From NCBI GenBank assembly GCA_033977065.1, contig JAXCHI010000004.1, positions 284,724 through 348,723 of the forward strand: DNA of 64,000 bases, in the 5' to 3' direction. The notes below the pieces were generated by a model. It did not search any database and was not told the DNA's origin. It worked only from the letters and a program-made list of their open reading frames with translations. Shown one piece after another: positions 36,447 to 52,297 of the stretch (positions are counted from its first letter, which is position 1; the number at the start of each line of letters is the position of its first letter). The DNA comes from Candidatus Algichlamydia australiensis (GTDB lineage: Bacteria; Chlamydiota; Chlamydiia; Chlamydiales; JAJFMI01). Position numbers and translations under genes: made by a program.

Positions 36447-37382
36447 ATGAGTAATTCAATAGATCGTTACGATGTTGCAACATACGCACTAAATCTTGGT
36501 TTTGCTGCCGCGTCTGCTTGCGAGCACTCCCGTATAGGCAATGTATTAAGTAAATGGCGTATAAGTTTATTACTACTTGGAGCAACAACCTATGCTTTTA
36601 ATTATGTCCAATTTATTAGGACATTGTCCGATGACTTAAAAGATCAATTTAATCCTCACAAAAGCGAAGTCGATAACGATTTTTTTAAGTTCTCGCTTGC
36701 AATTACACCTATTTTTGCCGCTTTCTTGCTTCCAGTTGCTTGCCATTATTTGGGAAAGAGAGTAACTCACGCATTTCCTAGGGTTCAGTTGCAAGCGCCT
36801 AAGGGCTGTACTGCAGAATGGCTAGCTCCCTCTACATTTCACAACTTGGTTCAAGGATTTGCAGTGTCAAATGCACTTTTAAATCTTGCTGCAACTTTTG
36901 GTGGAAATGCGCACTCAAGATTATCTACAGGAGTTTTGTCTCTATTACACTTTGGCACAATACCTACACTTGCAAGTGGAAATCTAATTGAAGCGACTAC
37001 CACAAGAGATCATAGTGATGGAAAAACACAGTTCCTTTTCAGCTATATTTTTCGAGTAAAAAAACCTACTGATCCCTTGACCATAAGTGAAAGTGGTACA
37101 GTTTATTCCTATTCAAAAGTTATAGAAAATTTTTATAAAAATATTCAACAAATTAAACTTGATGATAGCACAGTTGAATGCTCTGAAAAAGCGATACCAA
37201 TTGTTGTTGGTGTGAATCCAACAATCACTAAAATCGTGAAATTGATTACCTATCACTTAACAGTTGCCAAAGACCTTATACCTGAAAAACTCAAAGGCTT
37301 TTCTCAACTCACTGCTTTTGTAAAAGATACGGGGCCCTTTGTTCCCAACGTCATCAAGGCAGCATCTATTGTGCCTTTGTAG
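36447..37382 (+). CDS. Hypothetical membrane protein, tandem paralog B
   Basis: 311 aa, with the same length class and N-terminal pattern as 35491-36432. Its RBS is ggaga. Its 3' end overlaps the uvrA 3' end by 17 nt. Confidence 0.6.
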   Translation: MSNSIDRYDVATYALNLGFAAASACEHSRIGNVLSKWRISLLLLGATTYAFNYVQFIRTLSDDLKDQFNPHKSEVDNDFFKFSLAITPIFAAFLLPVACHYLGKRVTHAFPRVQLQAPKGCTAEWLAPSTFHNLVQGFAVSNALLNLAATFGGNAHSRLSTGVLSLLHFGTIPTLASGNLIEATTTRDHSDGKTQFLFSYIFRVKKPTDPLTISESGTVYSYSKVIENFYKNIQQIKLDDSTVECSEKAIPIVVGVNPTITKIVKLITYHLTVAKDLIPEKLKGFSQLTAFVKDTGPFVPNVIKAASIVPL

Positions 37383-40300: not shown

Positions 40301-42936
40301 ACAAGTCGCTCCAAAATGCGCAGCAAGCGGTCAATATCGCGAAAATGGAGACCTGTTGTCGGTTCATCTAAGATGTAAAGAGTTTGTCCCGTCGAGGGGC
40401 GAATGAGCTCTTTGGCAAGCTTGATGCGCTGCGCCTCCCCACCAGAAAGCGTGGTGGAGCTCTGGCCGATTTTCATGTAGCCGAGACCCACGTCGTTGAG
40501 AAGTTGCAATTTTTTGCGAATATTAGGAATTGCATCAAAGAACTCCAACCCTTCTCGCACACTCAAGCGCATCACGTCGTAGATCGATTTTCCCTTGTAA
40601 AGAACAGAGAGCGTTTTGGGATCAAAACGACGCCCGTCACAGAGAGGACAAGTTGCAAAACTATCCTCTAAAAAGTCCATATCGATACGTATCTGACCCA
40701 TTCCAGAGCATTTAGGACACGACCCCTCGCGCACATTAAAACTAAAACGACCTGAAGAAAACCCTTGCGCCTTAGCATCGGGAAGCGAAGCAAAGAGATT
40801 GCGAATATCGTCGAACAACTTCACATAAGTCGCAGGATTGGAACGCGGCGTGCGGCCAATGGGCGTTTGATCGATTGCAATAACCTTGTCCAGATGCTCG
40901 ATGCCCTCTAATGCCTTGTGCTTGGCGGGGCGTAGCAGCGATCGCTGTAATTTATTGGAAAGAGCAGGGTAGAGCGTATCAATAATCAGCGAAGATTTTC
41001 CCGCACCTGAGATTCCTGTTACTGCAACAAAAAGTCCAAGAGGAATTTCCGCATCCATCTTTTGCAAATTATTCGCCTCAGCGCCTCTGATCACTAGCCT
41101 TTTTTCTGTAGGCTTGCGGCGGCTTTTCGGAGTTGCAACTTTTTCTTTTCCCGAGAGGTAAGCACCCGTAACAGAGCGCGGGCTCTTGATCAGATCAGCC
41201 GGCTTGCCTTGTGCCACAATCTCACCGCCTTCAACACCTGCACCAGGACCCACATCGACAATCTCATCGGCCGCATAAATCGTCTCCTCATCGTGCTCAA
41301 CCACAATCACCGTGTTGCCTTGATCGCGCAAGTTCAAAAGCGTGCGAATGAGGCGCTCATTATCTGTCGGGTGCAAGCCAATTGAAGGCTCATCTAAAAT
41401 ATACGTAGTCCCAATCAGCCCCGCTCCAATTTGTGAAGCGAGGCGCACACGCTGCGCTTCGCCACCTGAGAGCGTTGCTGAAGTCCGCTCTAAAGAAATA
41501 TAGTGCAGGCCGACATCAAGGAGAAAATGCAGACGCCTCTGCAACTCCTTAATCATCTCAGCCCCGACTTTTTTCTCCATTTTGGAGAGCTTAAGCGCAT
41601 CAAAAAAATTTGCCGCCTCAGCAATTGTCATACTCGTGATATCGTGAATTGTCTTTTTTCCAAGCGTTGTCACCCGAGGGTAAGAGCGAATGCGCGCGCC
41701 CAGGCAGTCAGGACAGACCTGTTCGCTCATCATCTCTAGCATCCGCTGCTTGTACTTTTCGCTCTTAGCTTCATTAAAGCGTTTTTTAACCTCATGTAAA
41801 ACGCCCTTCCACTCCACATATTCAATCCAGCGCTTCTTAGACTTTGGATGGACAAACGTCATCTTCGTCCAGCGCTCCTCCGTCCCATGCAGAAAAATAT
41901 GCTTGGCACTCTTTGAAAGCTTTTTCCAAGGCTTCTTTACATTAAAATCAAAAATGCGGCCTAAATTGCGATAGATATTGCCCCAGAGTACCGTCTCAAA
42001 ACTGCCCGCAATTGCGATGCAGTCCTCACTAATACTCTTCTCTTCATCGATGATTTTTTCCTCATCAAAGACAAGAGTCGTGCCCAAACCCGAACAAGCC
42101 GGACACATGCCTTTCGGATGGTTAAAAGAGAAATCTTGCGGTTCAAGCGGGGGATAAGAAATTCCCGATTTAGCTGAATGCGCATGCGTAGAAAAAAGAT
42201 GTTCCTTGCCACTCTCCACTTCAAGACAGCTCATCACACCCTTGCCTAGCTCAAGAGCGCTACTTACCGCCTCTTTCAACCGCCCACGGTTTTCACGATC
42301 AACCTTCAATCGATCAACCACTAGATCGACATCGTGTGAGACACTTTTTTTAAGCGACATACCCTCTTCTAGCTCAACAATCTCGCCATCGACACGCACC
42401 CGCATGAACCCTTTGCGAAGTAGCTCCGCAAAATCTTCCTTAAACTCGCCCTTTTTACCCTTTGCAAACGGCGCCAATACAATTAGCTTTGTACCTGCCT
42501 TCAACTCACTAATCTGCTCTAAAATTTGCGTATTGCTCTGCGGCGTGACACGCTCCCCACTCTCCGGACAGTGCGCCACACCAATCCGCGCAAAAAGTAC
42601 CCGCAAATAGTCATAAATTCCCGTAATCGTCCCGACAGTTGACCTCGGACTCTTGTGCGTGGTCTTCTGCTCAATGGAAATTGTGGGAGAAATCCCGGTA
42701 ATCAGCTCCGCATCAGGCTTAGGGATATCGCCCATATACCGTCGCGCATACGTAGATAAAGATTCAATATAACGGCGCTGCCCTTCAGCATAGATCGTAT
42801 CAAACGCCAGCGAGCTTTTGCCTGAGCCAGAGACCCCGGTAAAGACAATCAATTGTCCCGGCTTTAGCTCTAAAGAAACTTTTTTAAGGTTATGTACAGA
42901 AACTTTTTGAAGTTGGATCTTAGGACTTTCGCTCAT
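37366..42936 (-). CDS. uvrA: Excinuclease ABC subunit A, double-length (two complete UvrA units fused)
   Basis: 1856 aa. GVSGSGKSSLAFDTIYAEGQRRYIESLS near residue 35 recurs as GPSGSGKSSLAFETIYAEGQRRYIESLP near residue 960. There are four ABC signature/Walker sets and zinc-finger Cys pairs. Confidence 0.95.
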   Translation of the reverse strand: MSESPKIQLQKVSVHNLKKVSLELKPGQLIVFTGVSGSGKSSLAFDTIYAEGQRRYIESLSTYARRYMGDIPKPDAELITGISPTISIEQKTTHKSPRSTVGTITGIYDYLRVLFARIGVAHCPESGERVTPQSNTQILEQISELKAGTKLIVLAPFAKGKKGEFKEDFAELLRKGFMRVRVDGEIVELEEGMSLKKSVSHDVDLVVDRLKVDRENRGRLKEAVSSALELGKGVMSCLEVESGKEHLFSTHAHSAKSGISYPPLEPQDFSFNHPKGMCPACSGLGTTLVFDEEKIIDEEKSISEDCIAIAGSFETVLWGNIYRNLGRIFDFNVKKPWKKLSKSAKHIFLHGTEERWTKMTFVHPKSKKRWIEYVEWKGVLHEVKKRFNEAKSEKYKQRMLEMMSEQVCPDCLGARIRSYPRVTTLGKKTIHDITSMTIAEAANFFDALKLSKMEKKVGAEMIKELQRRLHFLLDVGLHYISLERTSATLSGGEAQRVRLASQIGAGLIGTTYILDEPSIGLHPTDNERLIRTLLNLRDQGNTVIVVEHDEETIYAADEIVDVGPGAGVEGGEIVAQGKPADLIKSPRSVTGAYLSGKEKVATPKSRRKPTEKRLVIRGAEANNLQKMDAEIPLGLFVAVTGISGAGKSSLIIDTLYPALSNKLQRSLLRPAKHKALEGIEHLDKVIAIDQTPIGRTPRSNPATYVKLFDDIRNLFASLPDAKAQGFSSGRFSFNVREGSCPKCSGMGQIRIDMDFLEDSFATCPLCDGRRFDPKTLSVLYKGKSIYDVMRLSVREGLEFFDAIPNIRKKLQLLNDVGLGYMKIGQSSTTLSGGEAQRIKLAKELIRPSTGQTLYILDEPTTGLHFRDIDRLLRILERLVSEGNTVLVIEHNLDLIKVADWVIDLEDGNVLAEGTPEQIIKAKTATGIALGEKKRVSAPSKKRVSKHTEIVVKGAEQNNLKGIDLTIPRGKMTVCTGPSGSGKSSLAFETIYAEGQRRYIESLPSYARQFVKQMAKPKLELIEGLSPAISIEQKRHAGNPRSTIGTMTEVYDYLRLLYAHLGEAFCPETGEKIVAITKEFVCKKLQELPEKTRVQILAPLTLRHGEDFSSLLMRLKAEGFRRVRLNGTTYDLEDEIPFSRGVKQEFHLVIDRIVIKPDITPRLFEAVSLASERGEGKLIAALDDQDLFFNLEFAVPSTGRSYPQIKPHTFSFNSEEGMCPDCQGLGIQWGADLTRFPKIMRCPPITLFYYLCKDRLSDEALELFEAFLEKEEIDPNTPLCDLSDKQQKLLMRGSEKSFTFAEISFKWIGFETLFAKRAKAAKNNLRKEILPHMDESPCPSCNGARLNPLARGVKVAGKTLPEVCELPISQTVQFLKKLSLPKEKKNLLDETLSQIDHRLKFMMEIGLEYLALSRSAPTLSGGETQRIHLARQLGSGLTGCLYVLDEPTIGLHPQNNALLNRALKKLCKSGNTLLLVEHDPLTINTADYLIDFGPEAGKKGGQIIAQGSIAQIKRDPKSLTGAYLSGEKSAVDCKYRKPTKKVLKIENASLHNLKNISLDIPLHIFTCITGVSGSGKSTLMHHLLRPAVEKALTHRQPPDTITIHGSKISGLKQIEKCIALDQSPIGHTARADITTYSDLLTPLRRFFAELPEARMRNLKAYHFSYNHMKGMCRKCWGLGTRKIQLQLMPAVTITCDSCNGNRLAPLPLEVTYKGKNLGQLLNLTVNEAIDFLPKIPKIQKTLKVLVEVGLGYLTLGQRVQTLSGGEAQRLRLSRELVRPAKRHTLYLFDEPTIGLHSVDIEKLLKIFHKIVDSGHTIIMIEHNSDIIESADYQIELGPGAGEKGGKVVNIISPTKAQ

Positions 42937-42994
42937 AGGGGGAAGTATAAGAGATTTCTGTACTTTTATGCGAATTTAGATTATATTACTTCTT

Positions 42995-44545
42995 ATGAAT
43001 ATCGTGCCAGTAAGTCTAGAAGCAACTAAAAATTATTTTAATATAGATCGCGCAGGATGGAGCCAAACAGCAGGGAAGGTGAGTTCCTTTATCTTCTCAC
43101 ATAAGAGGGGGCTGTTGGGGTTGACTCTTATTCTCTTCCCATTTGTACTTGTCGCAAAGAAATATTATAACATTACAGACGTGTGGCCTCATCAAGTATT
43201 AATTGCGAATATTTTATATTCTTTACGTAATTATGTGCCGGAAAATTATCGCGTAGGGATTGAGCGGTATGTTGGTGAAGTCTATCCGGCAAATAAATTC
43301 TCTGAAGAAGATAGGGAAGAATTACAAGAGTGGGTTAATCAAGCACAACCTAGGCAAGCACAAGCTAGAGTAATTGGAATAATTGATTCTCAGGAATCAC
43401 GTCAGAGACTTATGAACTGTTTGCTACGAGGTAGTAAGGAACTGGAGTATGCACCTTCAAGTTTTTTAGAATTAAACGTTTTTGATAAGCTTTCGCACCT
43501 CCAGTCAATAGAATTTAATTCAGATGAAAAACTGGATCTTCCAGAGAAGATTCTAAATTTAAAAAATCTGCGTAGTTTGCGACTTGAAAATTTTAGAATT
43601 CCAGAAAATTTTGAATTTGAAAGACTTTCTAAAATCCAACAGCTTTCTCTAATTAAGTGCGATATTTCAAATGATGTACACTTGGAAAAACTCTTTTTTT
43701 TAAAAAAACTTCGTATTTCCGAATCTAAACTTGAAGCATTACCTTTTTTACCATTAAAAAATTTAGTTACATTAGATCTTTATTCCCTTGATCTTGCTGT
43801 TATTCCTGAATGGATCGGAGGTTTATCAAAATTAGCTAGTTTAACATTGACTAAATGCGCAGCTTTAAAAAGCCTACCAGAAGAAATTTATCGGCTGCCA
43901 AAGGGATGCAAAATAAACATATGGGCTTCTGGACTGGCTCATGCCCCTATTTTTGAGCAGACGACAAAAGAAGGTTATTCAGGACCTAAATTCTCTACAG
44001 AAAGTAGGACTAGTTCTTTCCCTTTTAGAAAGACTCCTTTTTTAAGATTTGGAGCTAGCTGGCTTGATGTAGTCAAAGAGCTTGACAAATGGATTCATGT
44101 AAATAAGGAGAATTCTCTTAGCCGTATAAGATTTCGAGATGAAATCATAAATAGAAGTTTTATTTTTGAGAATTTTAGTCAGGGTGACGAACTAGAGAAT
44201 AAAGCATACATTGACATGTTGGCATTTATTTTGAAAAAGAGTCGAGACACGGGTAAACCTTTTCAATCTTATTTTGAGTTTTGCCCAAGAAGCGTTGTTG
44301 AGTATGAAAGAACTCTCGAAATATTGGAATATATAGCAGATAAATATGCAGGCTCATACACAATGGCATTTTATAACTATAATCATCTGCCACTAGAAAT
44401 AGATTTTGAAAAATTAGGAGGGTTGCTTTATCAAAGAGAACGTTGCAGTAGGTTGTCGATTGAAGGATTTACCTTACGAAACTTCGGTTATCTCGATAGT
44501 CTACCGATCGAAAAATTATCTCTAGAAAATTGTGAAATTTTGTAA
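42995..44545 (+). CDS. Leucine-rich-repeat protein with an N-terminal TM anchor, paralog 1
   Basis: 516 aa. The TM segment is LLGLTLILFPFVLVA. LRRs include LKNLRSLRLENFRIPENFEFERLSKIQQLSL and LVTLDLYSLDLAVIPEWIGGLSKLASLTL. Confidence 0.8.
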   Translation: MNIVPVSLEATKNYFNIDRAGWSQTAGKVSSFIFSHKRGLLGLTLILFPFVLVAKKYYNITDVWPHQVLIANILYSLRNYVPENYRVGIERYVGEVYPANKFSEEDREELQEWVNQAQPRQAQARVIGIIDSQESRQRLMNCLLRGSKELEYAPSSFLELNVFDKLSHLQSIEFNSDEKLDLPEKILNLKNLRSLRLENFRIPENFEFERLSKIQQLSLIKCDISNDVHLEKLFFLKKLRISESKLEALPFLPLKNLVTLDLYSLDLAVIPEWIGGLSKLASLTLTKCAALKSLPEEIYRLPKGCKINIWASGLAHAPIFEQTTKEGYSGPKFSTESRTSSFPFRKTPFLRFGASWLDVVKELDKWIHVNKENSLSRIRFRDEIINRSFIFENFSQGDELENKAYIDMLAFILKKSRDTGKPFQSYFEFCPRSVVEYERTLEILEYIADKYAGSYTMAFYNYNHLPLEIDFEKLGGLLYQRERCSRLSIEGFTLRNFGYLDSLPIEKLSLENCEIL

Positions 44546-44583
44546 TTTTCAGACTTTTTCAAAAAAAATATTATAATATCCCT

Positions 44584-44655
44584 AAAGCCAATCAATTGTC
44601 CCATTTTTAGCTGCAAATAAATTTTTTTAAGTTGGACCTTAGGACCTTCGCTCAT
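44584..44655 (-). pseudogene. Relic of the uvrA 5' end (first ~24 codons), duplicated with the LRR gene unit
   Basis: The minus-strand atgagcgaaggtcctaaggtccaacttaaaaaaatttatttgcagctaaaaatgggacaattgattggcttt aligns with uvrA codons 1-32, with a 24 nt internal deletion. The flanking promoter region is also duplicated. Confidence 0.8.
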
Positions 44656-44712
44656 AGAGGAAGTATAAGAGATTTCTGTACTTTTATGCGAATTTAGATT
44701 ATACTACTTCTT

Positions 44713-46281
44713 ATGAATATCGTGCCAGTAAGTCTAGAAGCAACTAAAAATTATTTTAGCATAGATCGTGCAGGATGGAGCCAAACAGCACGACATGTGG
44801 GTTCCTTTGTGTTAAGCCACAAAAGGGAGCTGTTGGGAATTACCATTGCTTTCCTTGCGGTTGCTGGGGCTGCATCATTCGTTTATCAACAATATACAGA
44901 TGTTTGGCCGCATCAACTGTTTATTGCAAATCTCTTGTACCCCTTACGCAATTTCGTTCCGCAAAAAATAAAAGGAGGAATTGAAAGGTATAACAGCGAA
45001 GTCTATCCGGTGCACAAATTTACAGAAGAAGATCGACAAGAATTGCAAAATTGGGTGGAAAGAGTTCCCCTTGGTGTACATCACATGGGCGGAGCTAGAA
45101 GGGAGATCCGCGAAACTATAATGGAAGAGGTTCTTGCCGGTAAAAAGAGCCTGTCGAAGGAAGTTCCAGTAAATTTTTTACGGCTAAACGTGTTTGATAA
45201 ACTTTCCCATCTTCAAAAAATAAAAATTGTTTCGGGAGGAACGAAAATCGATCTACCTGAAGCGATCAAAAAATTAAAAAATCTCCAAACCTTACATCTA
45301 AACAAGTTAATAATTCCCGAAGATTTTCAATTTGCAGAATTTCCTAAATTGGAGTGCCTTTCTTTAGAATTTTGTGACGTTCCGTGTGGCCTTCAACTAG
45401 AGAATCTTAAGCATTTAAAGAAGCTTAGTCTTAGTTATAATTGTACACTTGGTGCACTCCCTTCAATTCCATCGAAAAATTTAGTATCGTTGGAGCTTTG
45501 TTGCACACTTTTGGCTTCTGTTCCAACTGCAGTCGGGGGCTTCTCAAAGTTAACTTTTTTAGATTTGAGCCATAATAGAGAAATGAAAAGCCTACCTGAG
45601 GAAATTTATCAATTATCAAAGAAATGTAAAATATTAATAGGGTGGTCTGCTATTGCTCTTGCGCCTGTCTTTCAAGAGATAATAAAAGAAGGCTATTCAG
45701 GGCCTCAATTTTTTGTTAATAGCACGCCTATTGATGAAGGCGATTATCATCTTCCTTTATCTGAAAATAAAAGTCATTCATTTTTGTCATTGGGATCTAA
45801 TTGGCTTGAAATAGTCAGAGAGCTTGATAAACTTGTTCATGACAACGTCCCTCTTCATAGATCTTTTCGAGAAAAAATTATACATAACAAATTGACCGAT
45901 TATAAATTTAGGCTAGGGGAGCATATGCGACAAGATAAGAAAGTTATCGACATGCTGGTATATATTTCGAATAACTGCGAAGCAGGAAGCCCAATACGTA
46001 ACTGTCACTTTCAATTTGAACCAATGTGTGTTTCAGATACGGAACAATCCATTAAAATAGCAAATTATATTATCGATAATTACAAAGAAAAATATTCATT
46101 CTCATTTAGGAAGCTTGGCCCCAGACCTCTAGAGATAAATTTAAGAGAATTGGTGGGCCTAGCGAATCAAACAGAACTCTGTAGTAGCCTGTCGATTAAA
46201 GGATTTACCTTGAGGAATTTTGATTATTTGGACACTTTATCGGTAGAAAAGCTTTCAATAGAAGATTGTGAAATTTTGTAA
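44713..46281 (+). CDS. Leucine-rich-repeat protein with an N-terminal TM anchor, paralog 2
   Basis: 522 aa, collinear with paralog 1. Of its first 26 codons, 25 are identical at the protein level, and it has the same C-terminal ending, C(E)IL. Confidence 0.8.
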   Translation: MNIVPVSLEATKNYFSIDRAGWSQTARHVGSFVLSHKRELLGITIAFLAVAGAASFVYQQYTDVWPHQLFIANLLYPLRNFVPQKIKGGIERYNSEVYPVHKFTEEDRQELQNWVERVPLGVHHMGGARREIRETIMEEVLAGKKSLSKEVPVNFLRLNVFDKLSHLQKIKIVSGGTKIDLPEAIKKLKNLQTLHLNKLIIPEDFQFAEFPKLECLSLEFCDVPCGLQLENLKHLKKLSLSYNCTLGALPSIPSKNLVSLELCCTLLASVPTAVGGFSKLTFLDLSHNREMKSLPEEIYQLSKKCKILIGWSAIALAPVFQEIIKEGYSGPQFFVNSTPIDEGDYHLPLSENKSHSFLSLGSNWLEIVRELDKLVHDNVPLHRSFREKIIHNKLTDYKFRLGEHMRQDKKVIDMLVYISNNCEAGSPIRNCHFQFEPMCVSDTEQSIKIANYIIDNYKEKYSFSFRKLGPRPLEINLRELVGLANQTELCSSLSIKGFTLRNFDYLDTLSVEKLSIEDCEIL

Positions 46282-46445
46282 TTTTCAGATTTCCTAAAAA
46301 ATATTTTAATATCCCTAAAGGCAATCAACTTTCCTAGATTCAATTATAACGAAAGTTAGTGAATTCAGATCAGAAGAGCTTTAATCCTATTGGAAGTATT
46401 GGGAATCTCTATACTTTATTACAAGTTCATGTTAAAATGTTCTCT

Positions 46446-47402
46446 ATGAATGCTACAAATTTAACTGAAACAAGTCTAAAAATATCAAAAAATATTTTTA
46501 ATTTTGATCATGCTGCATGGAGCCAGACGGCAGAGAAAGTGGGCTCTTTTTTCCATTCACACAGATTTCTAATGGCTAAAATAGTGTTGGGAGTGACTCT
46601 TTTAAATATTGTTACTATTATGGGCGCTGGATCTCTGATATATAGAAAAATGCGAGGTGTTTGGCCACATCAAGTACTTACTGCAAATATTTTATATCCT
46701 CTTCGTAATTATACACCTGAAAGTTGGAAAACAATCATTGAGAACTATAATGACGAAATCAACCCGGCAAATAAATTTACAGCAGAAGACAGAGAAGAAC
46801 TACAAGAGTGGGTTGATCAAGCAGAAGAGCGACCTGATAGAGGTGCAGGGATTCCTGATTCTCGGGATTTACGCCAAGGACTCATGAATCGTGTGCTAGA
46901 AGGAAAGAAGAATTTAGATTTTTATTTACGTAGGCCTTTAAACTATTGGGAGCAGGGGGGGCTTCCTGATGAAAGAGAAATAGTTGTTCCTCTAAGTTTT
47001 TTAGATTTAAAAGTATTTAATAAATTATCTCATATTTCTGATATTAGCATTAAATCAAATGAAAAACGCGATCCACCAGAGGAGATTTTAGATCTAAAAA
47101 ATCTTCGTAGTTTGACTCTTATAAATTGTACAATACCAGAAAACTTTGAGTTTGAAAAACTCCCTAAATTGGAAAAACTTTTCTTTTGGCGGTGCGATAT
47201 TCCAGATATTTTGTATTTGAAAAAGGTAAGCAATTTGCATCAAATTGGTATTGCAAATTGTACAATACCAGAAAACCTTCAGTTTGAAGAACCCTCTAAA
47301 TTTGAAAAACTTTTCATTGTTGATTGCAATATTCCAGATATTACGTTTTTGGAAGGGTTAAGCCATTTGCGTGGAATTGATATTGAAGATTGTATAATTT
47401 AA
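46446..47402 (+). CDS. Leucine-rich-repeat protein with an N-terminal TM anchor, paralog 3 (shorter, ends inside the LRR region)
   Basis: By alignment to the paralog N-termini (MNATNLTETSLKISKNIFNFDHAAWSQTAEKV vs MNIVPVSLEATKNYFNIDRAGWSQTAGKV), the start is ATG 46446 rather than 46359. It lacks the ~200 aa C-terminal region of paralogs 1 and 2. Confidence 0.7.
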   Translation: MNATNLTETSLKISKNIFNFDHAAWSQTAEKVGSFFHSHRFLMAKIVLGVTLLNIVTIMGAGSLIYRKMRGVWPHQVLTANILYPLRNYTPESWKTIIENYNDEINPANKFTAEDREELQEWVDQAEERPDRGAGIPDSRDLRQGLMNRVLEGKKNLDFYLRRPLNYWEQGGLPDEREIVVPLSFLDLKVFNKLSHISDISIKSNEKRDPPEEILDLKNLRSLTLINCTIPENFEFEKLPKLEKLFFWRCDIPDILYLKKVSNLHQIGIANCTIPENLQFEEPSKFEKLFIVDCNIPDITFLEGLSHLRGIDIEDCII

Positions 47403-47473
47403 ATTGCCATTCTGTAACCTAGAGGATCTTCCGCTTCAGATTACAGTTTTTTGTATAGTATTTGTTAGTTCAA

Positions 47474-47517
47474 CTGAAGTTGCTACCCAGTTTCTCCTAT
47501 AGAGAGGGGGATTTTTT
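47474..47517. repeat. Family-C repeat, half copy
   Basis: ctgaagttgctacccagtttctcctatagagagggggatttttt matches the reverse complement of 54931-54985 (ctcaagttgccactcagtttctcctatggagagagggattttt). Confidence 0.7.
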
Positions 47518-47617
47518 CTTTGCATATTCTCCGCAGATAATTAATCATATTAAATAATTGAATTCTTGTAACTTATCGCTTTTTTAGTTAAAATATTCCC
47601 ATAACAAGGTTACTCCT

Positions 47618-48310
47618 ATGCTAACTGTAAATGAATACTTTAATCACTCTTGTACGCTCGCCAACGCAGGAAAAGAGCGCCTGGTCTCCTATTTTAAACC
47701 TGTATCAAGCTATGCAGAAACGTTTTTTAGTGAAGGAGCGAAAGAGACAATTGCTAAAAATCGCGTTCTAATTATAACAGTTCTTTCAATTACAGCCCTA
47801 GGATTAACAGGGCTATCTGTTTATTACATTGCAAAGCGGGTCTTCAGTAAAACAACTTCCGATGCCAAACCTTCTCTTAAGAGGAGCCCAGAGTATGACA
47901 AAAATACAGGCAGGTATTCTAGTGCCGGGTGCTCTTTTGCTCTTCCTAATGGAATAAATCCCAAAGAGGAGGAGATAACATTTATCCTTCCGAGTGGTGT
48001 AAAGCTGACGTTTTTTCAATATAAAGACCGTACAAAGTCCACAATTGATGATGACTTGAGCGCGTATACTACTCATTATCAGAAAGGCTTGAATCAAGAA
48101 CCCAAAAAAGGTTCTCTTGATAACGGACTTAAGTATCTCGCAATCTCTCCGATTCATGTTGAAGGAAATCCCTATTTAAAATCCTATACTATCTACAACG
48201 GAGAGGATAGATATAGGTTTACGGCGACTCATATAGAGCAAGCAAAGATAAAAGAGAGTATTGAAATGAATGCAATTTTAGAATCATTTACCCTTACTAA
48301 GGAGAGCTAA
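47618..48310 (+). CDS. Hypothetical single-TM protein, family member 1 of 3
   Basis: 230 aa. The pattern FFSEGAKETIAKNRVLIITVLSITALGLTGLSVYYI is shared with the next two genes. Confidence 0.65.
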   Translation: MLTVNEYFNHSCTLANAGKERLVSYFKPVSSYAETFFSEGAKETIAKNRVLIITVLSITALGLTGLSVYYIAKRVFSKTTSDAKPSLKRSPEYDKNTGRYSSAGCSFALPNGINPKEEEITFILPSGVKLTFFQYKDRTKSTIDDDLSAYTTHYQKGLNQEPKKGSLDNGLKYLAISPIHVEGNPYLKSYTIYNGEDRYRFTATHIEQAKIKESIEMNAILESFTLTKES

Positions 48311-48311
48311 A

Positions 48312-49016
48312 ATGGCAGCTATAGGAACTACACTTTCCATAGCAGGGAGCGCTGCTCAAGCTTTACCTGGAGCAAACACTAACCAAGCAAAGACAATTGC
48401 TAACAGATTCTTCAACAATGATATAAAAAAAACATTTGTGCAAAACCGCACTCTTATTTTCGCTACTCTTACAGTAGTAACTTTGTCATCTACTGTACTC
48501 GCTATCTATTTTGTTTATCAAAAAAATGTAACCCTCAATAAAACAGATAAAGAAAATGAGTTCACGATTCAAATCAGTGGAAATCGTGTTTCTGTTTCTC
48601 CCTCAGGTTTTACTTTTCAGATTCCTTCAAGTACAAAACAACACGCAAATCAGAAATTTTTGCTACCTGAAGATTTAACACTACAATTTTCAGTCTCTAA
48701 GACGAACAAGAGCATTGGTGATTATGTGGAAGAATTTAAAGATAATGCATGTTCAGGAAAGACGGAAAAACCGATAAGTGTAAATGGAAGATTAAGAACT
48801 TCATACGCAGGAGAGTTTGTTCCACAATTGTTTAGCGTTAATGGGGTTCAGGTTCTAGAACGTCGCCCTAAAAAAGTGCTTGAGGGAGTGTTTGAGCGGA
48901 GCTATTACATAGTAGGTGCAGGTCGCCTCTACCTACTAAAATTTTCTCACGAAAGTGATCCGTCAAAACTAGAAACTTTACAAAATGTTTTAAAATCAAT
49001 AGTTTTTCATAATTAG
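48312..49016 (+). CDS. Hypothetical single-TM protein, family member 2 of 3
   Basis: 234 aa with FFNNDIKKTFVQNRTLIFATLTVVTLSSTVLAIYFV. Its ATG lies 1 nt after the previous stop and has the RBS aaggagag. Confidence 0.65.
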   Translation: MAAIGTTLSIAGSAAQALPGANTNQAKTIANRFFNNDIKKTFVQNRTLIFATLTVVTLSSTVLAIYFVYQKNVTLNKTDKENEFTIQISGNRVSVSPSGFTFQIPSSTKQHANQKFLLPEDLTLQFSVSKTNKSIGDYVEEFKDNACSGKTEKPISVNGRLRTSYAGEFVPQLFSVNGVQVLERRPKKVLEGVFERSYYIVGAGRLYLLKFSHESDPSKLETLQNVLKSIVFHN

Positions 49017-49025
49017 AGACTTAAG

Positions 49026-49748
49026 GTGACAACTGTAGGAAATATTATTACAGAAGCAAGCAAAGCCACTCAGGGTTTACCTGCAGCAAAAATGGACCGA
49101 GCGAGTTTTGTTGCTAGTACGTTTTTTAGCGGAGGTATGCGCAACTTTATTGCTGAGAATAGATCATTCGTTATTGCGCTTTCTGCAGCCACGCTATTTG
49201 GTACAGCTTATTTAGTTCATAAAATGATATCTGAAAAAACTGGAGTTAAGTATAACATCCAATTTGACCTTCCTGACGGAGTAAAAAAGGCTGATTTAGA
49301 AAAATCTATCAATCTGGAAGTGGCCAAAGAGAGTGCAAAAAAAGAAATTACCGCTCGTCAAAAAGATGGCATTGTTTTTACTGATGAAGAAATAGCCTTT
49401 CTTTGTGCCGATCTGATAGAAATACAGCTATTTAAAAAGCCTAGTGCAAAAGAGTTATATGTATTTTGTTCCATCCAAAGCAGAGATCAAACGTTTGATT
49501 TTTCACAAATTCATACTGTTTGGACGAAATTCTATGGAAAAGATTTTGTAGAATCAACGCTCTTAACTTTGACAAGTGGGGAAAAAGCCGTCCGTTTTAG
49601 GGTGTCAGGTAAAGAAGCTTCTGAAATTGTCATGATTGAGAAAGGGGGGTTCTTTTACGGGCTCTGTTTTCCTTCTTCTGAAGTTCAGCTATTAACGTTT
49701 CGGGCTGATGTAACAAATCTGATCAATTCAATCACATTTCCCGAATAA
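49026..49748 (+). CDS. Hypothetical single-TM protein, family member 3 of 3
   Basis: 240 aa with a GTG start and FFSGGMRNFIAENRSFVIALSAATLFGTAYLV. Confidence 0.6.
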   Translation: MTTVGNIITEASKATQGLPAAKMDRASFVASTFFSGGMRNFIAENRSFVIALSAATLFGTAYLVHKMISEKTGVKYNIQFDLPDGVKKADLEKSINLEVAKESAKKEITARQKDGIVFTDEEIAFLCADLIEIQLFKKPSAKELYVFCSIQSRDQTFDFSQIHTVWTKFYGKDFVESTLLTLTSGEKAVRFRVSGKEASEIVMIEKGGFFYGLCFPSSEVQLLTFRADVTNLINSITFPE

Positions 49749-49798
49749 AATTCTGAATAGAAGCAAAAAGCGTTTTCTGTAATTAGCTCAAAAGTCTG

Positions 49799-50025
49799 TT
49801 TAGGGGTGTTCTCTTAATTTATGAATTTGAGGGGTGGTTTTCTTTTTAGAAGAAATTTATTATAGAGGGTAAAAGCAGCTTGATAAAACTCAAGTTACTA
49901 CCTAGTCTCTCCAGAAGGGGATGGGGGTAGCAACTTGAGTTTGATAAAATCGGTGAAATCTGAATAGCAAATCTACTCAGAAAGAAAACCGAACAGCAAG
50001 TTCAAAAATTCAGAGAACACCTCAA
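49799..50025. repeat. ~227 bp long imperfect palindrome with a family-C core, abutting the pyk start codon
   Basis: The outer arms are tttaggggtgttctcttaattt and aaattcagagaacacctcaaa. The inner arms are ggttttcttttt and agaaagaaaacc. The core is aaactcaagttactacc-tagtctctccagaaggggatgg-ggtagcaacttgagttt. Confidence 0.75.
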
Positions 50026-51825
50026 ATGCACCGTAGAACAAAAATTGTTTGTACTATAGGCCCCGCCGTCAGCAGCGAAGAGAAGATCGATCAGCTGATT
50101 TCCGCAGGAATGAATGTGGCGCGCTTAAACTTTAGCCATGGGACCCGTGAGGATCACGCGAAAACAATTGCTAATTTAAAAAAACTGCGTAAAAAGCGTG
50201 AAATTCCTCTAGCTATCATGCTGGATACGAAAGGACCTGAGATTCGTGTAGGCAAGTTAATCCAAGAGCAGCTTGAGTTAAAGAAGAGAGACAAACTTAA
50301 GCTAGTAAAAGGTGAGGCAAAAGAGAGCTTAGAGGTGCCAATTACGCCCGCTTCTGTTGTAGATGATTTAGAAGAGGGAATGCATGTACTCTTTGATGAT
50401 GGCTACATCAGTGCAAAGGTTATAGAGAAAAGCAAAGACTTTGTAACAGTTCAAATAGAGAATCCTGGCGTTCTGCTTAGCAATAAAGGAATCAATATCC
50501 CCCATGAAAATATTGATTTACCTGCGATGACAGAACAGGATATGGCAGACATTCGGTTTGGGTGTGAGCAGGATGTGGATATTATTGCCGCATCGTTTAT
50601 TCGCTCTGCAGAGCATATTCTTGAGATCAAACAGCTGCTGGCAAAAGAGAAGGCGCAGGATATCATGGTCATGGCCAAGATAGAGAGCGCTGAGGGGGTC
50701 AACCACTTTGACTCTATTCTCCAGGCAGCAGATGGAATTATGGTAGCAAGGGGCGATCTAGGCGTAGAATTGCCTCTTAAAGATGTGCCGCGCTTGCAGA
50801 AAATGATGATTCGTAAGTGCTACCATTCAGGCAAGTCTGTGATCATTGCGACGCAAATGCTAGAGTCGATGATCACAAATCCAAGACCGACGCGAGCAGA
50901 AGTCTCTGATGTAGCCAATGCGATCTATGATAGTGCATCTGCTGTGATGCTCTCAGGAGAGACCGCTGTTGGTAAGTACCCAATTGAAGCGGTTAAAATG
51001 ATGCGCAGCGTAATTGAAGAGGCTGAGAGCGATTTTGACTACCGCAGTTTTTTCTACAGTGACACAAGAGGGGATTTTTATGATGTGGCGACTTCTGTTG
51101 GCTTAGCATCGGTAAAAACAGCCTATGCGATCGATGCAAAAGCTATTTTTGTCTTTACTCATAGTGGTAATGCGGCGCGTACTATTGCCCGTTTGCGACC
51201 TTATCAGCCGATCATTGCACTCTCTCCTACACAGAAAACTTATCATCAGATGGGCGTAAATTGGGGGGTCGTCCCATTTTTTGGTGAGGTTAAGGATTTG
51301 AAGAGCGGATTCGCCACTCTGAGCTGTTTTGCACTGAAGAAAAAGCTTACGCGCTATGGAGATTTGGTAGTCGTTTCAGCAGGATCGCCCTTTGGGATTT
51401 CAGGAACAACTAATACAATGATTGTGGAAAATATTGGAGATGTTCTAGTGCGTGGGTACGCGACAAAAAAAGGCAAACGCACAGTTGGGAAAGTGCTCAT
51501 TGTGCTCTCTACAGAAAATAAAAGACAGTACCATATACAAGGCAAAGTTGCGGTGCTCACTGCTTGTGATACAGAGTATGAGAAGCTTCTGCATGGAACA
51601 GCTGGAATCATTTTACAGAATCATCCAGACGATTTAGAGTCGGAAAAATGTGCCAAGGCACTGGCAAAAAACCTTAATGTTCCTCTGATCACGCGTGCTG
51701 ATAACGCCTCCACAATTCTGCAAGAAGGACAACTGGTCACTCTTGATCCGCAAAAAGGTCTTGTTTTCAAAGGATCGTTTTCAACAGACGATGAGATGAT
51801 TCATCAAGTTTGTTGTGATGATTGA
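50026..51825 (+). CDS. pyk: Pyruvate kinase with a C-terminal PEP-utilising-enzyme mobile-domain-like extension
   Basis: 599 aa with RRTKIVCTIGPA, NFSHG and MVARGDLGVE. The last ~115 aa (GKVAVLTACD...GIILQNHPD...LVTLDPQKGLVF) resemble the swivelling domain found in Bacillus-type PK. Confidence 0.9.
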   Translation: MHRRTKIVCTIGPAVSSEEKIDQLISAGMNVARLNFSHGTREDHAKTIANLKKLRKKREIPLAIMLDTKGPEIRVGKLIQEQLELKKRDKLKLVKGEAKESLEVPITPASVVDDLEEGMHVLFDDGYISAKVIEKSKDFVTVQIENPGVLLSNKGINIPHENIDLPAMTEQDMADIRFGCEQDVDIIAASFIRSAEHILEIKQLLAKEKAQDIMVMAKIESAEGVNHFDSILQAADGIMVARGDLGVELPLKDVPRLQKMMIRKCYHSGKSVIIATQMLESMITNPRPTRAEVSDVANAIYDSASAVMLSGETAVGKYPIEAVKMMRSVIEEAESDFDYRSFFYSDTRGDFYDVATSVGLASVKTAYAIDAKAIFVFTHSGNAARTIARLRPYQPIIALSPTQKTYHQMGVNWGVVPFFGEVKDLKSGFATLSCFALKKKLTRYGDLVVVSAGSPFGISGTTNTMIVENIGDVLVRGYATKKGKRTVGKVLIVLSTENKRQYHIQGKVAVLTACDTEYEKLLHGTAGIILQNHPDDLESEKCAKALAKNLNVPLITRADNASTILQEGQLVTLDPQKGLVFKGSFSTDDEMIHQVCCDD

Positions 51826-51847: not shown

Positions 51848-52297
51848 ATGTTTGTACAGTCGTATGTCGAATTAAATGAAACAGAAAGTCTTGTCTATTA
51901 TTTAAAAACAGCAGATGATTTTGATCCCACATCTCAAAGTGCTGTAGCGGCACTTTGGACTGCTTTCGAAAAGAGTTATTTTGACGTTCAGGATGTTTTA
52001 ATGAAGCAAGGCGTTGCAAATGCTGATTATCGAGATGATGAAGGAAATCACCCTATTCATCTTTTAGCAGAAAAGGGCAATACCTCTGTAGGCGTCTGTT
52101 TACAAAATGGAATTCCTATAGATCTTGAAAATAGTGCTGGAATGACACCTCTACAATTGGCTGTTGCCCATAACCAGAAAGATATGGTTCAGTATTTGAT
52201 TAATAATAAGGCGAAGATTCCTGATAATGAGACAGATCAAAAGATCCAAGAGCTGCTTCAGGAAAAACCGCATCACTTTTGTTGCCACCTTTTATAA
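51848..52297 (+). CDS. Ankyrin-repeat protein
   Basis: 149 aa. GNHPIHLLAEKGNTSVGVCLQNG and GMTPLQLAVAHNQKDMVQYLINN are ANK consensus-like. Confidence 0.75.
   Translation: MFVQSYVELNETESLVYYLKTADDFDPTSQSAVAALWTAFEKSYFDVQDVLMKQGVANADYRDDEGNHPIHLLAEKGNTSVGVCLQNGIPIDLENSAGMTPLQLAVAHNQKDMVQYLINNKAKIPDNETDQKIQELLQEKPHHFCCHLL

Follow-up and report, generated by a model that had tools for sequence, protein, structure and literature searches.

Three adjacent genes of Candidatus Algichlamydia australiensis, here called A, B and C, are, as judged from their sequences, paralogs: all three share an N-terminal tail and the transmembrane helix that follows it, and A and B are related over their whole length. 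The genes lie in a 64,000-nucleotide (nt) stretch of contig JAXCHI010000004.1 (the window, to which all coordinates refer). The C-terminal domain of B is predicted by AlphaFold2 (AF2) modeling and structure comparison to be an alpha-beta-alpha sandwich of the Mog1/PsbP/DUF1795 (DcrB) type with a central antiparallel sheet, and A probably has the same fold. We tentatively read the triplet, at somewhat less than an even chance, as an operon whose products are non-enzymatic binding modules tethered to the membrane, most likely on its periplasmic side, with one tail function in common and specificities that have diversified. The source strain, Cla049, belongs to the Simkaniaceae and lives in symbiosis with the dinoflagellate Cladocopium, a coral alga (PMC11317633). 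Table S12 of the genome paper lists A, B and C as singletons among 189 genes without an orthogroup, and the AlphaFold predictions reported there had low predicted local distance difference test (pLDDT) values (31.4 for A, 42.5 for B and 39.2 for C), with no structural match reported (PMC11317633). Since the three genes were assigned to no orthogroup, OrthoFinder had missed their paralogy. What is added here is the recognition of that paralogy, and the use of the paralogs as a mutual alignment sufficed to recover the fold of B.

BLASTP aligned A with B over about 190 amino acids (aa) (E = 3e-9), B with C over residues 1 to 66 only (E = 2e-8), and A with C over about 50 aa (E = 3e-5). An earlier reading of this stretch, made from the letters alone (the sequence-only reading), had described three distant paralogs sharing a tail and a single membrane helix, and had allowed that the similarity might be confined to the helix. 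When the tails preceding the helix were scored alone against 500 shuffles, the z values were 4.5 (A-B), 8.1 (A-C) and 13.1 (B-C), so the similarity of the tails is not merely an effect of the transmembrane segment. In the same kind of test, the C-terminal domains of A and B were weakly similar (z = 3.4; 4 of the 500 shuffles scored equally well), and no significant sequence similarity was found between those of A and C (z = 0.7) or B and C (z = 0.2). Distant paralogy therefore stands for the N-terminal module of all three proteins and for the C-terminal domains of A and B, and does not extend by this measure to the C-terminal domain of C; the earlier description of these domains as diversified was apt. 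Alignment of C with A plus B by hhalign was marginal (P = 0.018; probability, 2.6%), pairing IQFDLPDGVK with ITFILPSGVK and a C-terminal xxSITF with xxSFTL.

Within the tail, FF and NR are invariant in A, B and C, with the spacing FF-x10-NR (the x9 given previously was a miscount). A second motif, A-x-Q-(A/G)-L-P-(G/A)-A, is found only in B and C, matching the earlier count of two proteins out of three. The tail of 46 to 49 residues is predicted to be helical, with FF-x10-NR directly against the membrane. Each protein has one segment whose 19-residue Kyte-Doolittle value (KD19) exceeds 1.0, spanning a single helix of about 19 to 23 residues (maxima of 2.23 from residue 50 in A, 2.01 from residue 47 in B and 1.54 from residue 47 in C). 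This segment lies too deep in the sequence to be a signal peptide. The invariant Arg that borders the helix on its N-terminal side, together with the lack of a signal peptide, suggests an N-in signal anchor.

Several other N-terminal architectures were considered and rejected. A Sec signal peptide or lipoprotein is ruled out by the start of the hydrophobic segment at residues 47 to 50 and the lack of a lipobox, and a Tat signal peptide by the single Arg (the motif before the helix reads K/Q/E-N-R), the missing AxA site and the overlong helix. No Cys follows the helix in A, B or C, and none of the three sequences contains a twin-arginine or lipobox targeting signal of the kind seen in PsbP and CyanoP. 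An anti-sigma factor-like architecture found no profile match; in addition, chlamydiae are not known to have extracytoplasmic function (ECF) sigma factors.

We modeled B with AF2 from an alignment made up of the three paralogs. The model had a mean pLDDT of 62, with most of residues 83 to 234 at 70 to 87, and its elements follow the order beta-hairpin, beta-beta-beta, alpha, six beta strands, alpha. Foldseek comparison of B with the Protein Data Bank (PDB) gave 20 matches at E <= 1e-3, all from one superfamily (PsbP, CyanoP, PnsL/PPD, BT_1490 and LpqN), the best being PsbP of photosystem II (PSII) (E = 4.6e-6). Between 1e-3 and 2e-2 followed SciW, EagT6, Tsi3, DcrB, PA94 and Mog1, and Foldseek probabilities were about 1.0 throughout. 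Template-modeling scores (TM-scores), normalized to target length, were 0.57 for CyanoP, 0.56 for EagT6, 0.54 for PsbP, 0.53 for Tsi3, 0.52 for PA94 and 0.50 for DcrB. Because these are alike across families, we assign B to the fold and not to the PsbP family.

Sequence searches did not reach this fold. The Pfam models of the Mog1/PsbP clan, including PF01789 and PF08786, had no match at E <= 10 with full-length proteins or isolated domains, and a PDB sequence search with the profile and single domains found no similar chain (best E, about 0.7 to 1.2). Pfam matches to TnpW (E = 0.003 to 0.06) and UL20 (E = 0.23), seen when full proteins, isolated domains and isolated tails were searched, were discarded as noise. 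The sequence-only reading had recognized no known domain, and for B the predicted structure overturns this. It had also held that a match to a periplasmic housekeeping fold would count against a family of displayed variants. This objection applies only by half: the superfamily does include periplasmic DcrB, and on the other side B shows no family membership by sequence and the genes are lineage-specific in a variable site, unlike conserved housekeeping genes.

The triplet appears to stand alone. A word-indexed profile search of 5.8 billion clustered proteins returned only A, B and C, and an exhaustive HMMER scan, covering 1.84 billion representatives, yielded nothing beyond these three except one repeat protein (P0004; 2728 aa; E = 7e-4), which is spurious, its score being made up of eight repeats of 3 to 6 bits each. 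The small family foreseen earlier thus has exactly three members in these protein databases. The C-terminal domain of C as sole query returned only C itself, and a hidden Markov model (HMM) of the N-terminal module found no further copy among all open reading frames (ORFs) of the window. Searching the large protein database with the N-terminal module alone missed even A, B and C and is uninformative rather than negative. The triplet is a new sequence family with a new architecture (conserved tail, transmembrane anchor and predicted PsbP-like domain) inside a known fold; it is a modest but real lead and not a new kind of system.

The gene coordinates and the gaps of 1 nt (A/B) and 9 nt (B/C) are exactly those of the sequence-only reading, whose guess at a chlamydial source was also right. 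The strong ribosome-binding site of B, AAGGAG, lies within the 3' end of A; the start of A is preceded by AAGG and that of C by a weak GAGA only. The GTG start of C is supported by its BLASTP homology to B, which begins at residue 1. In A, B and C alike, GC content is ordered GC1 > GC2 > GC3 by codon position, a periodicity that fits real coding sequence, and the locus is the same base for base in two independent read-set assemblies. A single gene split by frameshifts was ruled out, since each ORF carries its own complete tail-plus-helix module. The short gaps, the placement of the B ribosome-binding site inside A, a terminator-like hairpin found upstream of A alone and the structured spacer that follows C suggest that the three genes are co-transcribed as one predicted transcription unit, in keeping with the operon-like packing proposed earlier, which the promoter-like site upstream of A also fits.

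The hairpin (47492-47511, followed by TTTTTTCTTT) belongs to copy 1 of a dispersed intergenic element, and this copy looks like a terminator between the upstream leucine-rich repeat (LRR) genes and the triplet. In the element, a 26-nt box (AACTSAAGTTRCYACYYAGTYTCTCC) precedes a CTCC...GGGGA hairpin; two of its three copies also have a T-run. The box occurs three times in 64 kb (none expected), each time 100 to 200 nt upstream of a same-strand gene start (gene A, pyk and a lipid A acyltransferase-like gene), and copies 1 and 2 are direct repeats flanking the triplet. The element (AACTSAAGTT...) was absent from 80 related chlamydial loci and corresponds to no Rfam family. A promoter scan of the region was not enriched over shuffles (25 sites versus 20.9 expected), and the evidence for the promoter-like site before A is weak. 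The spacer between C and pyk has a minimum free energy of -91.7 kcal/mol, compared with -57.9 +/- 4.4 for shuffles (z = -7.7). It contains inverted repeats (I1, I7), with long-range arms (49800-49845 and 49981-50026) and an inner palindrome. The spacer probably marks the 3' end of the triplet transcript, a pyk leader or both; its candidate roles are those of terminator, pyk leader and small RNA.

The triplet lies between uvrA and pyk, a junction that is a recurrent landing site for lineage-specific genes. Scanning GTDB species genomes with pyruvate kinase yielded the 80 chlamydial loci (L003 to L082). The divergent uvrA(-)|pyk(+) pair is conserved across Chlamydiota, mostly with rsmE downstream. 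Among the 52 loci with both genes, the gap is at most 500 nt in 32 and holds 1.3 to 6.9 kb of unrelated lineage-specific genes, often tandem paralogs, in 17. Inserts elsewhere include three RING plus ankyrin proteins (L014), two outer-membrane-protein paralogs of the Legionella_OMP type (L065) and, in several loci, orphan pairs; none of the inserts resembles the triplet, and no homolog of it was found in the 80 syntenic loci. The gap measures 7,090 nt in Algichlamydia (42936-50026) and contains three LRR paralogs plus the triplet. The third-position GC content (GC3) of all six insert genes is 0.24 to 0.34 (0.24 to 0.31 in the LRR genes), versus 0.42 to 0.49 in uvrA and pyk. Given the junction comparison and this low GC3, the triplet is part of a lineage-specific insertion at a recurrent variable site. 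The junction is a useful place to seek accessory and host-interaction genes in chlamydial metagenome-assembled genomes.

The three LRR paralogs form OG0007647, among the 20 orthogroups unique to this species (PMC11317633). In each of them a conserved tail of about 35 aa (xSLEATKNYFxIDRAGWSQTA) leads into one transmembrane helix. The triplet tail has no detectable relation to these tails (hhalign P = 0.11), which lends no support to a portable targeting module common to both sets.

An ankyrin-repeat protein of 149 aa (51848-52297, +) is encoded directly 3' of pyk with a GC3 of 0.28, like the island genes. Next comes a histidine phosphatase, whose mechanically listed ORF overlaps the ankyrin ORF; the called gene starts later. 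On the far side of uvrA, two neighboring ORFs (EFCAOE_07215, 313 aa, and EFCAOE_07220, 311 aa; 35491-37382, +), low-pLDDT singletons in the genome paper, may be another unrecognized tandem pair; the triplet tail is not related to them (P = 0.31). The sole Rfam gathering-level match in the window is the bacterial small signal recognition particle (SRP) RNA (RF00169; 35288-35386, -; 63.2 bits; E = 1.3e-11).

Table 1. Positions of the triplet genes, their parts and associated features in the window.
Feature	Position	Strand	Details
Gene A	47618-48310	+	230 aa; SNF33_07205 / EFCAOE_07245
Gene A parts			Tail aa 1-49 (47618-47764), FF36-37, NR48-49; transmembrane helix aa 50-72 (47765-47833); C-terminal domain aa 73-230
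Gene B	48312-49016	+	234 aa; SNF33_07210 / EFCAOE_07250
Gene B parts			Tail aa 1-46 (48312-48449); transmembrane helix aa 47-69 (48450-48518); linker aa 70-82
Gene B, Mog1/PsbP/DcrB-like domain	48558-49013	+	aa 83-234; predicted structure
Gene C	49026-49748	+	240 aa, GTG start; SNF33_07215 / EFCAOE_07255
Gene C parts			Tail aa 1-46 (49026-49163); transmembrane helix ~aa 47-65 (49164-49220); C-terminal domain aa 66-240
Intergenic element, copy 1	47472-47521	+	Upstream of A; box AACTSAAGTTRCYACYYAGTYTCTCC plus hairpin plus T-run
Promoter-like TTGTAA-17-TAAAAT	47566-47594	+	~25 nt upstream of gene A start
Structured spacer between C and pyk	49749-50025	+	277 nt; holds element copy 2 (49887-49927) inside palindrome 49880-49948
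Intergenic element, copy 3	54982-54940	-	Upstream of lipid A acyltransferase-like gene
Three tandem LRR paralogs	42995-47402	+	516, 522 and 347 aa as listed; third probably starts at internal Met

Taken as membrane-tethered binding modules, the three proteins would share one layout: a tail of 46 to 49 residues, one uncleaved hydrophobic helix, a short polar linker and a domain of about 150 to 170 residues. Insertion would proceed through the Sec/SRP route in an N-in, C-out orientation, leaving the tail in the cytoplasm and tethering the C-terminal domain in the chlamydial periplasm. Since conservation is higher in the tail than in the ectodomain, the tail may serve a common anchoring or partner-binding function and the domains may provide diversified binding specificities. 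Proteins of this fold are non-enzymatic and work through binding (PMC3482391; PMC12881460). A, B and C are perhaps a co-expressed working set, which would have originated by tandem duplication within the variable accessory-gene site between uvrA and pyk. The topology, periplasmic location, binding function and co-transcription in this proposal are all predicted features. Parallels to the layout are offered by two bacterial proteins of the fold that carry a lipid tether, LpqN and CyanoP, CyanoP being held at the membrane on its extracytoplasmic (lumenal) side. The fold is not known to have catalytic activity, and in bacteria it mostly provides a scaffold or a module for binding proteins or ligands at the outer surface of the cytoplasmic membrane, as in the lipid-anchored DcrB, LpqN and CyanoP.

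A number of observations weigh against this interpretation. On the structural side, only one of the five AF2 models of B reached the mean pLDDT of 62 (the others, 47 to 51), the target-normalized TM-scores of B to its PDB matches are modest (0.40 to 0.57) with high root mean square deviation, AF2 of C reached a pLDDT of only 35, and the fold of A follows only from its homology to B. The charges flanking the helix give no clear positive-inside signal, and A has more Lys and Arg after the helix than before it. Genomic context points the same way: the neighbors are eukaryote-like LRR proteins with a tail-plus-helix layout in a low-GC island, and the RING plus ankyrin proteins at the uvrA-pyk site of another chlamydia suggest host interaction, not the envelope. 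Finally, a conserved N-terminal module joined to variable C-terminal domains is the classic layout of a secreted effector family.

These last points lead to the strongest competing explanation, that the proteins are membrane-anchored effectors exported through the type III secretion system (T3SS). The tail would be a secretion signal and chaperone-binding region, the helix would insert in the inclusion or host membrane, and the domain would bind host targets, its divergence reflecting host adaptation. Besides the conserved tail, the variable domain and the accessory island, this explanation draws on the adjoining LRR paralogs, since eukaryote-like repeat proteins are putative mediators of host interaction in chlamydiae, and on the composition of the first 25 residues, which is compatible with secretion: Ser, Thr, Ala, Asn and Gln abound in the polar N-termini of B and C, and B has no charge before K27. 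The triplet is also species-specific, like most inclusion-membrane proteins, and the organism has a complete T3SS (PMC11317633). Against these stand the single helix of about 19 to 23 residues, which is not the bilobed domain of at least 40 residues that defines inclusion-membrane (Inc) proteins, and the markedly hydrophobic character of the A and B helices (KD19, 2.0 to 2.2). A helix this hydrophobic favors capture by SRP into the bacterial membrane. The lack of detectable homology to the LRR tails also counts against this explanation, since it gives no support to a shared portable targeting module. We regard the effector explanation as unlikely on balance, though a serious contender.

That the genes are decaying or non-functional orphan ORFs, recent duplicates drifting apart with the tail as a remnant of common ancestry, is improbable. 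The lack of homologs in the protein databases, the low AF2 confidence for A (in the genome paper) and C, and the atypically low GC3 would all fit decay. All three are nevertheless intact ORFs of 230 to 240 codons within DNA of 36 to 38% GC, their start contexts have been kept (including AAGGAG before B), and B is predicted to contain a foldable domain of known fold. The uneven conservation (tail z values up to 13, versus about 0 for the domain) further argues for selection on the tail.

Host-delivered mimics of the PsbP/Mog1 fold are very improbable. Here the tail would be an export and targeting module, and the diversified domains would bind partners of this fold in the host, such as assembly factors of PSII or NDH in the thylakoid lumen or the Ran-Mog1 system; if true, this would be the first molecular handle on chlamydial manipulation of a plastid-bearing host. 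If the proteins are exported, the occurrence of a PsbP-like fold in a symbiont whose host is photosynthetic would be a lead worth noting, and this is unlikely on present evidence. The least probable version has the proteins delivered to the alga as plastid-directed PsbP mimics, interfering with or replacing PsbP-family proteins of PSII or NDH in the thylakoid lumen as an adaptation to the photosynthetic host. It can point to that host, to the VIPP1-like unique gene proposed in the genome paper as a hint of chloroplast interaction, and to the 14 best Foldseek matches by E-value, all PsbP or CyanoP chains (E down to 4.6e-6; 13 to 20% identity), but the target-normalized TM-scores of PsbP and CyanoP (0.54 to 0.57) are indistinguishable from those of EagT6, Tsi3, PA94 and DcrB (0.50 to 0.56), the PDB contains a disproportionately large number of PSII chains, the proteins have no Pfam PsbP match at E <= 10, no sequence similarity to any PDB chain and no twin-arginine motif or plastid-targeting feature, and the fold occurs widely in bacteria that are not photosynthetic (PMC3482391; PMC7716261).

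With membrane-tethered binding modules as the favored reading, three hypothetical proteins become a testable family of PsbP/DcrB-like proteins that can be set beside known systems. The PsbP, CyanoP and PPD-PnsL proteins have the best Foldseek E-values to B (4.6e-6 to 1e-4; top identities, 13 to 20%), yet their TM-scores are no better than those of other families of the fold; the triplet, unlike the PsbP family, has no PF01789 match and no twin-arginine signal, and its organism is non-photosynthetic. The Eag chaperones of the type VI secretion system (EagT6 and SciW; DUF1795) and the immunity protein Tsi3 have the fold seen in B (target-normalized TM-score, 0.51 to 0.56) and are small partner-recognizing binding modules, often encoded beside their partners (PMC3482391; PMC12881460). 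Unlike the triplet, Eag proteins form soluble dimers in the cytoplasm and have no transmembrane helix, and the ORF lists screened around the triplet, at 35.5 to 57.3 kb of the window, showed no type VI secretion system, Rhs or PAAR genes. Inc proteins resemble the triplet in being species-specific, often in tandem clusters, with a tail of about 40 to 50 residues before a hydrophobic region; they are likewise poorly predicted by AlphaFold and occur in organisms with a T3SS. Their bilobed hydrophobic domain spans about 40 to 60 residues, whereas the triplet has one short helix. DcrB (DUF1795) of Salmonella and Escherichia coli (PDB 6e8a) and mycobacterial LpqN (6e5d) have the same sandwich as B (Foldseek probability, about 1.0). 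As would hold for B in its predicted orientation, they are small non-enzymatic domains at the cytoplasmic membrane that face the periplasm or envelope, and DcrB is a membrane-anchored periplasmic protein (PMC7716261). In contrast to these proteins, the triplet has no Pfam clan match at the sequence level and is not conserved across its phylum, being three tandem copies in one species only. The tether also differs: DcrB is held by a lipobox Cys, whereas the triplet proteins would be held by an uncleaved transmembrane helix that follows a conserved tail.

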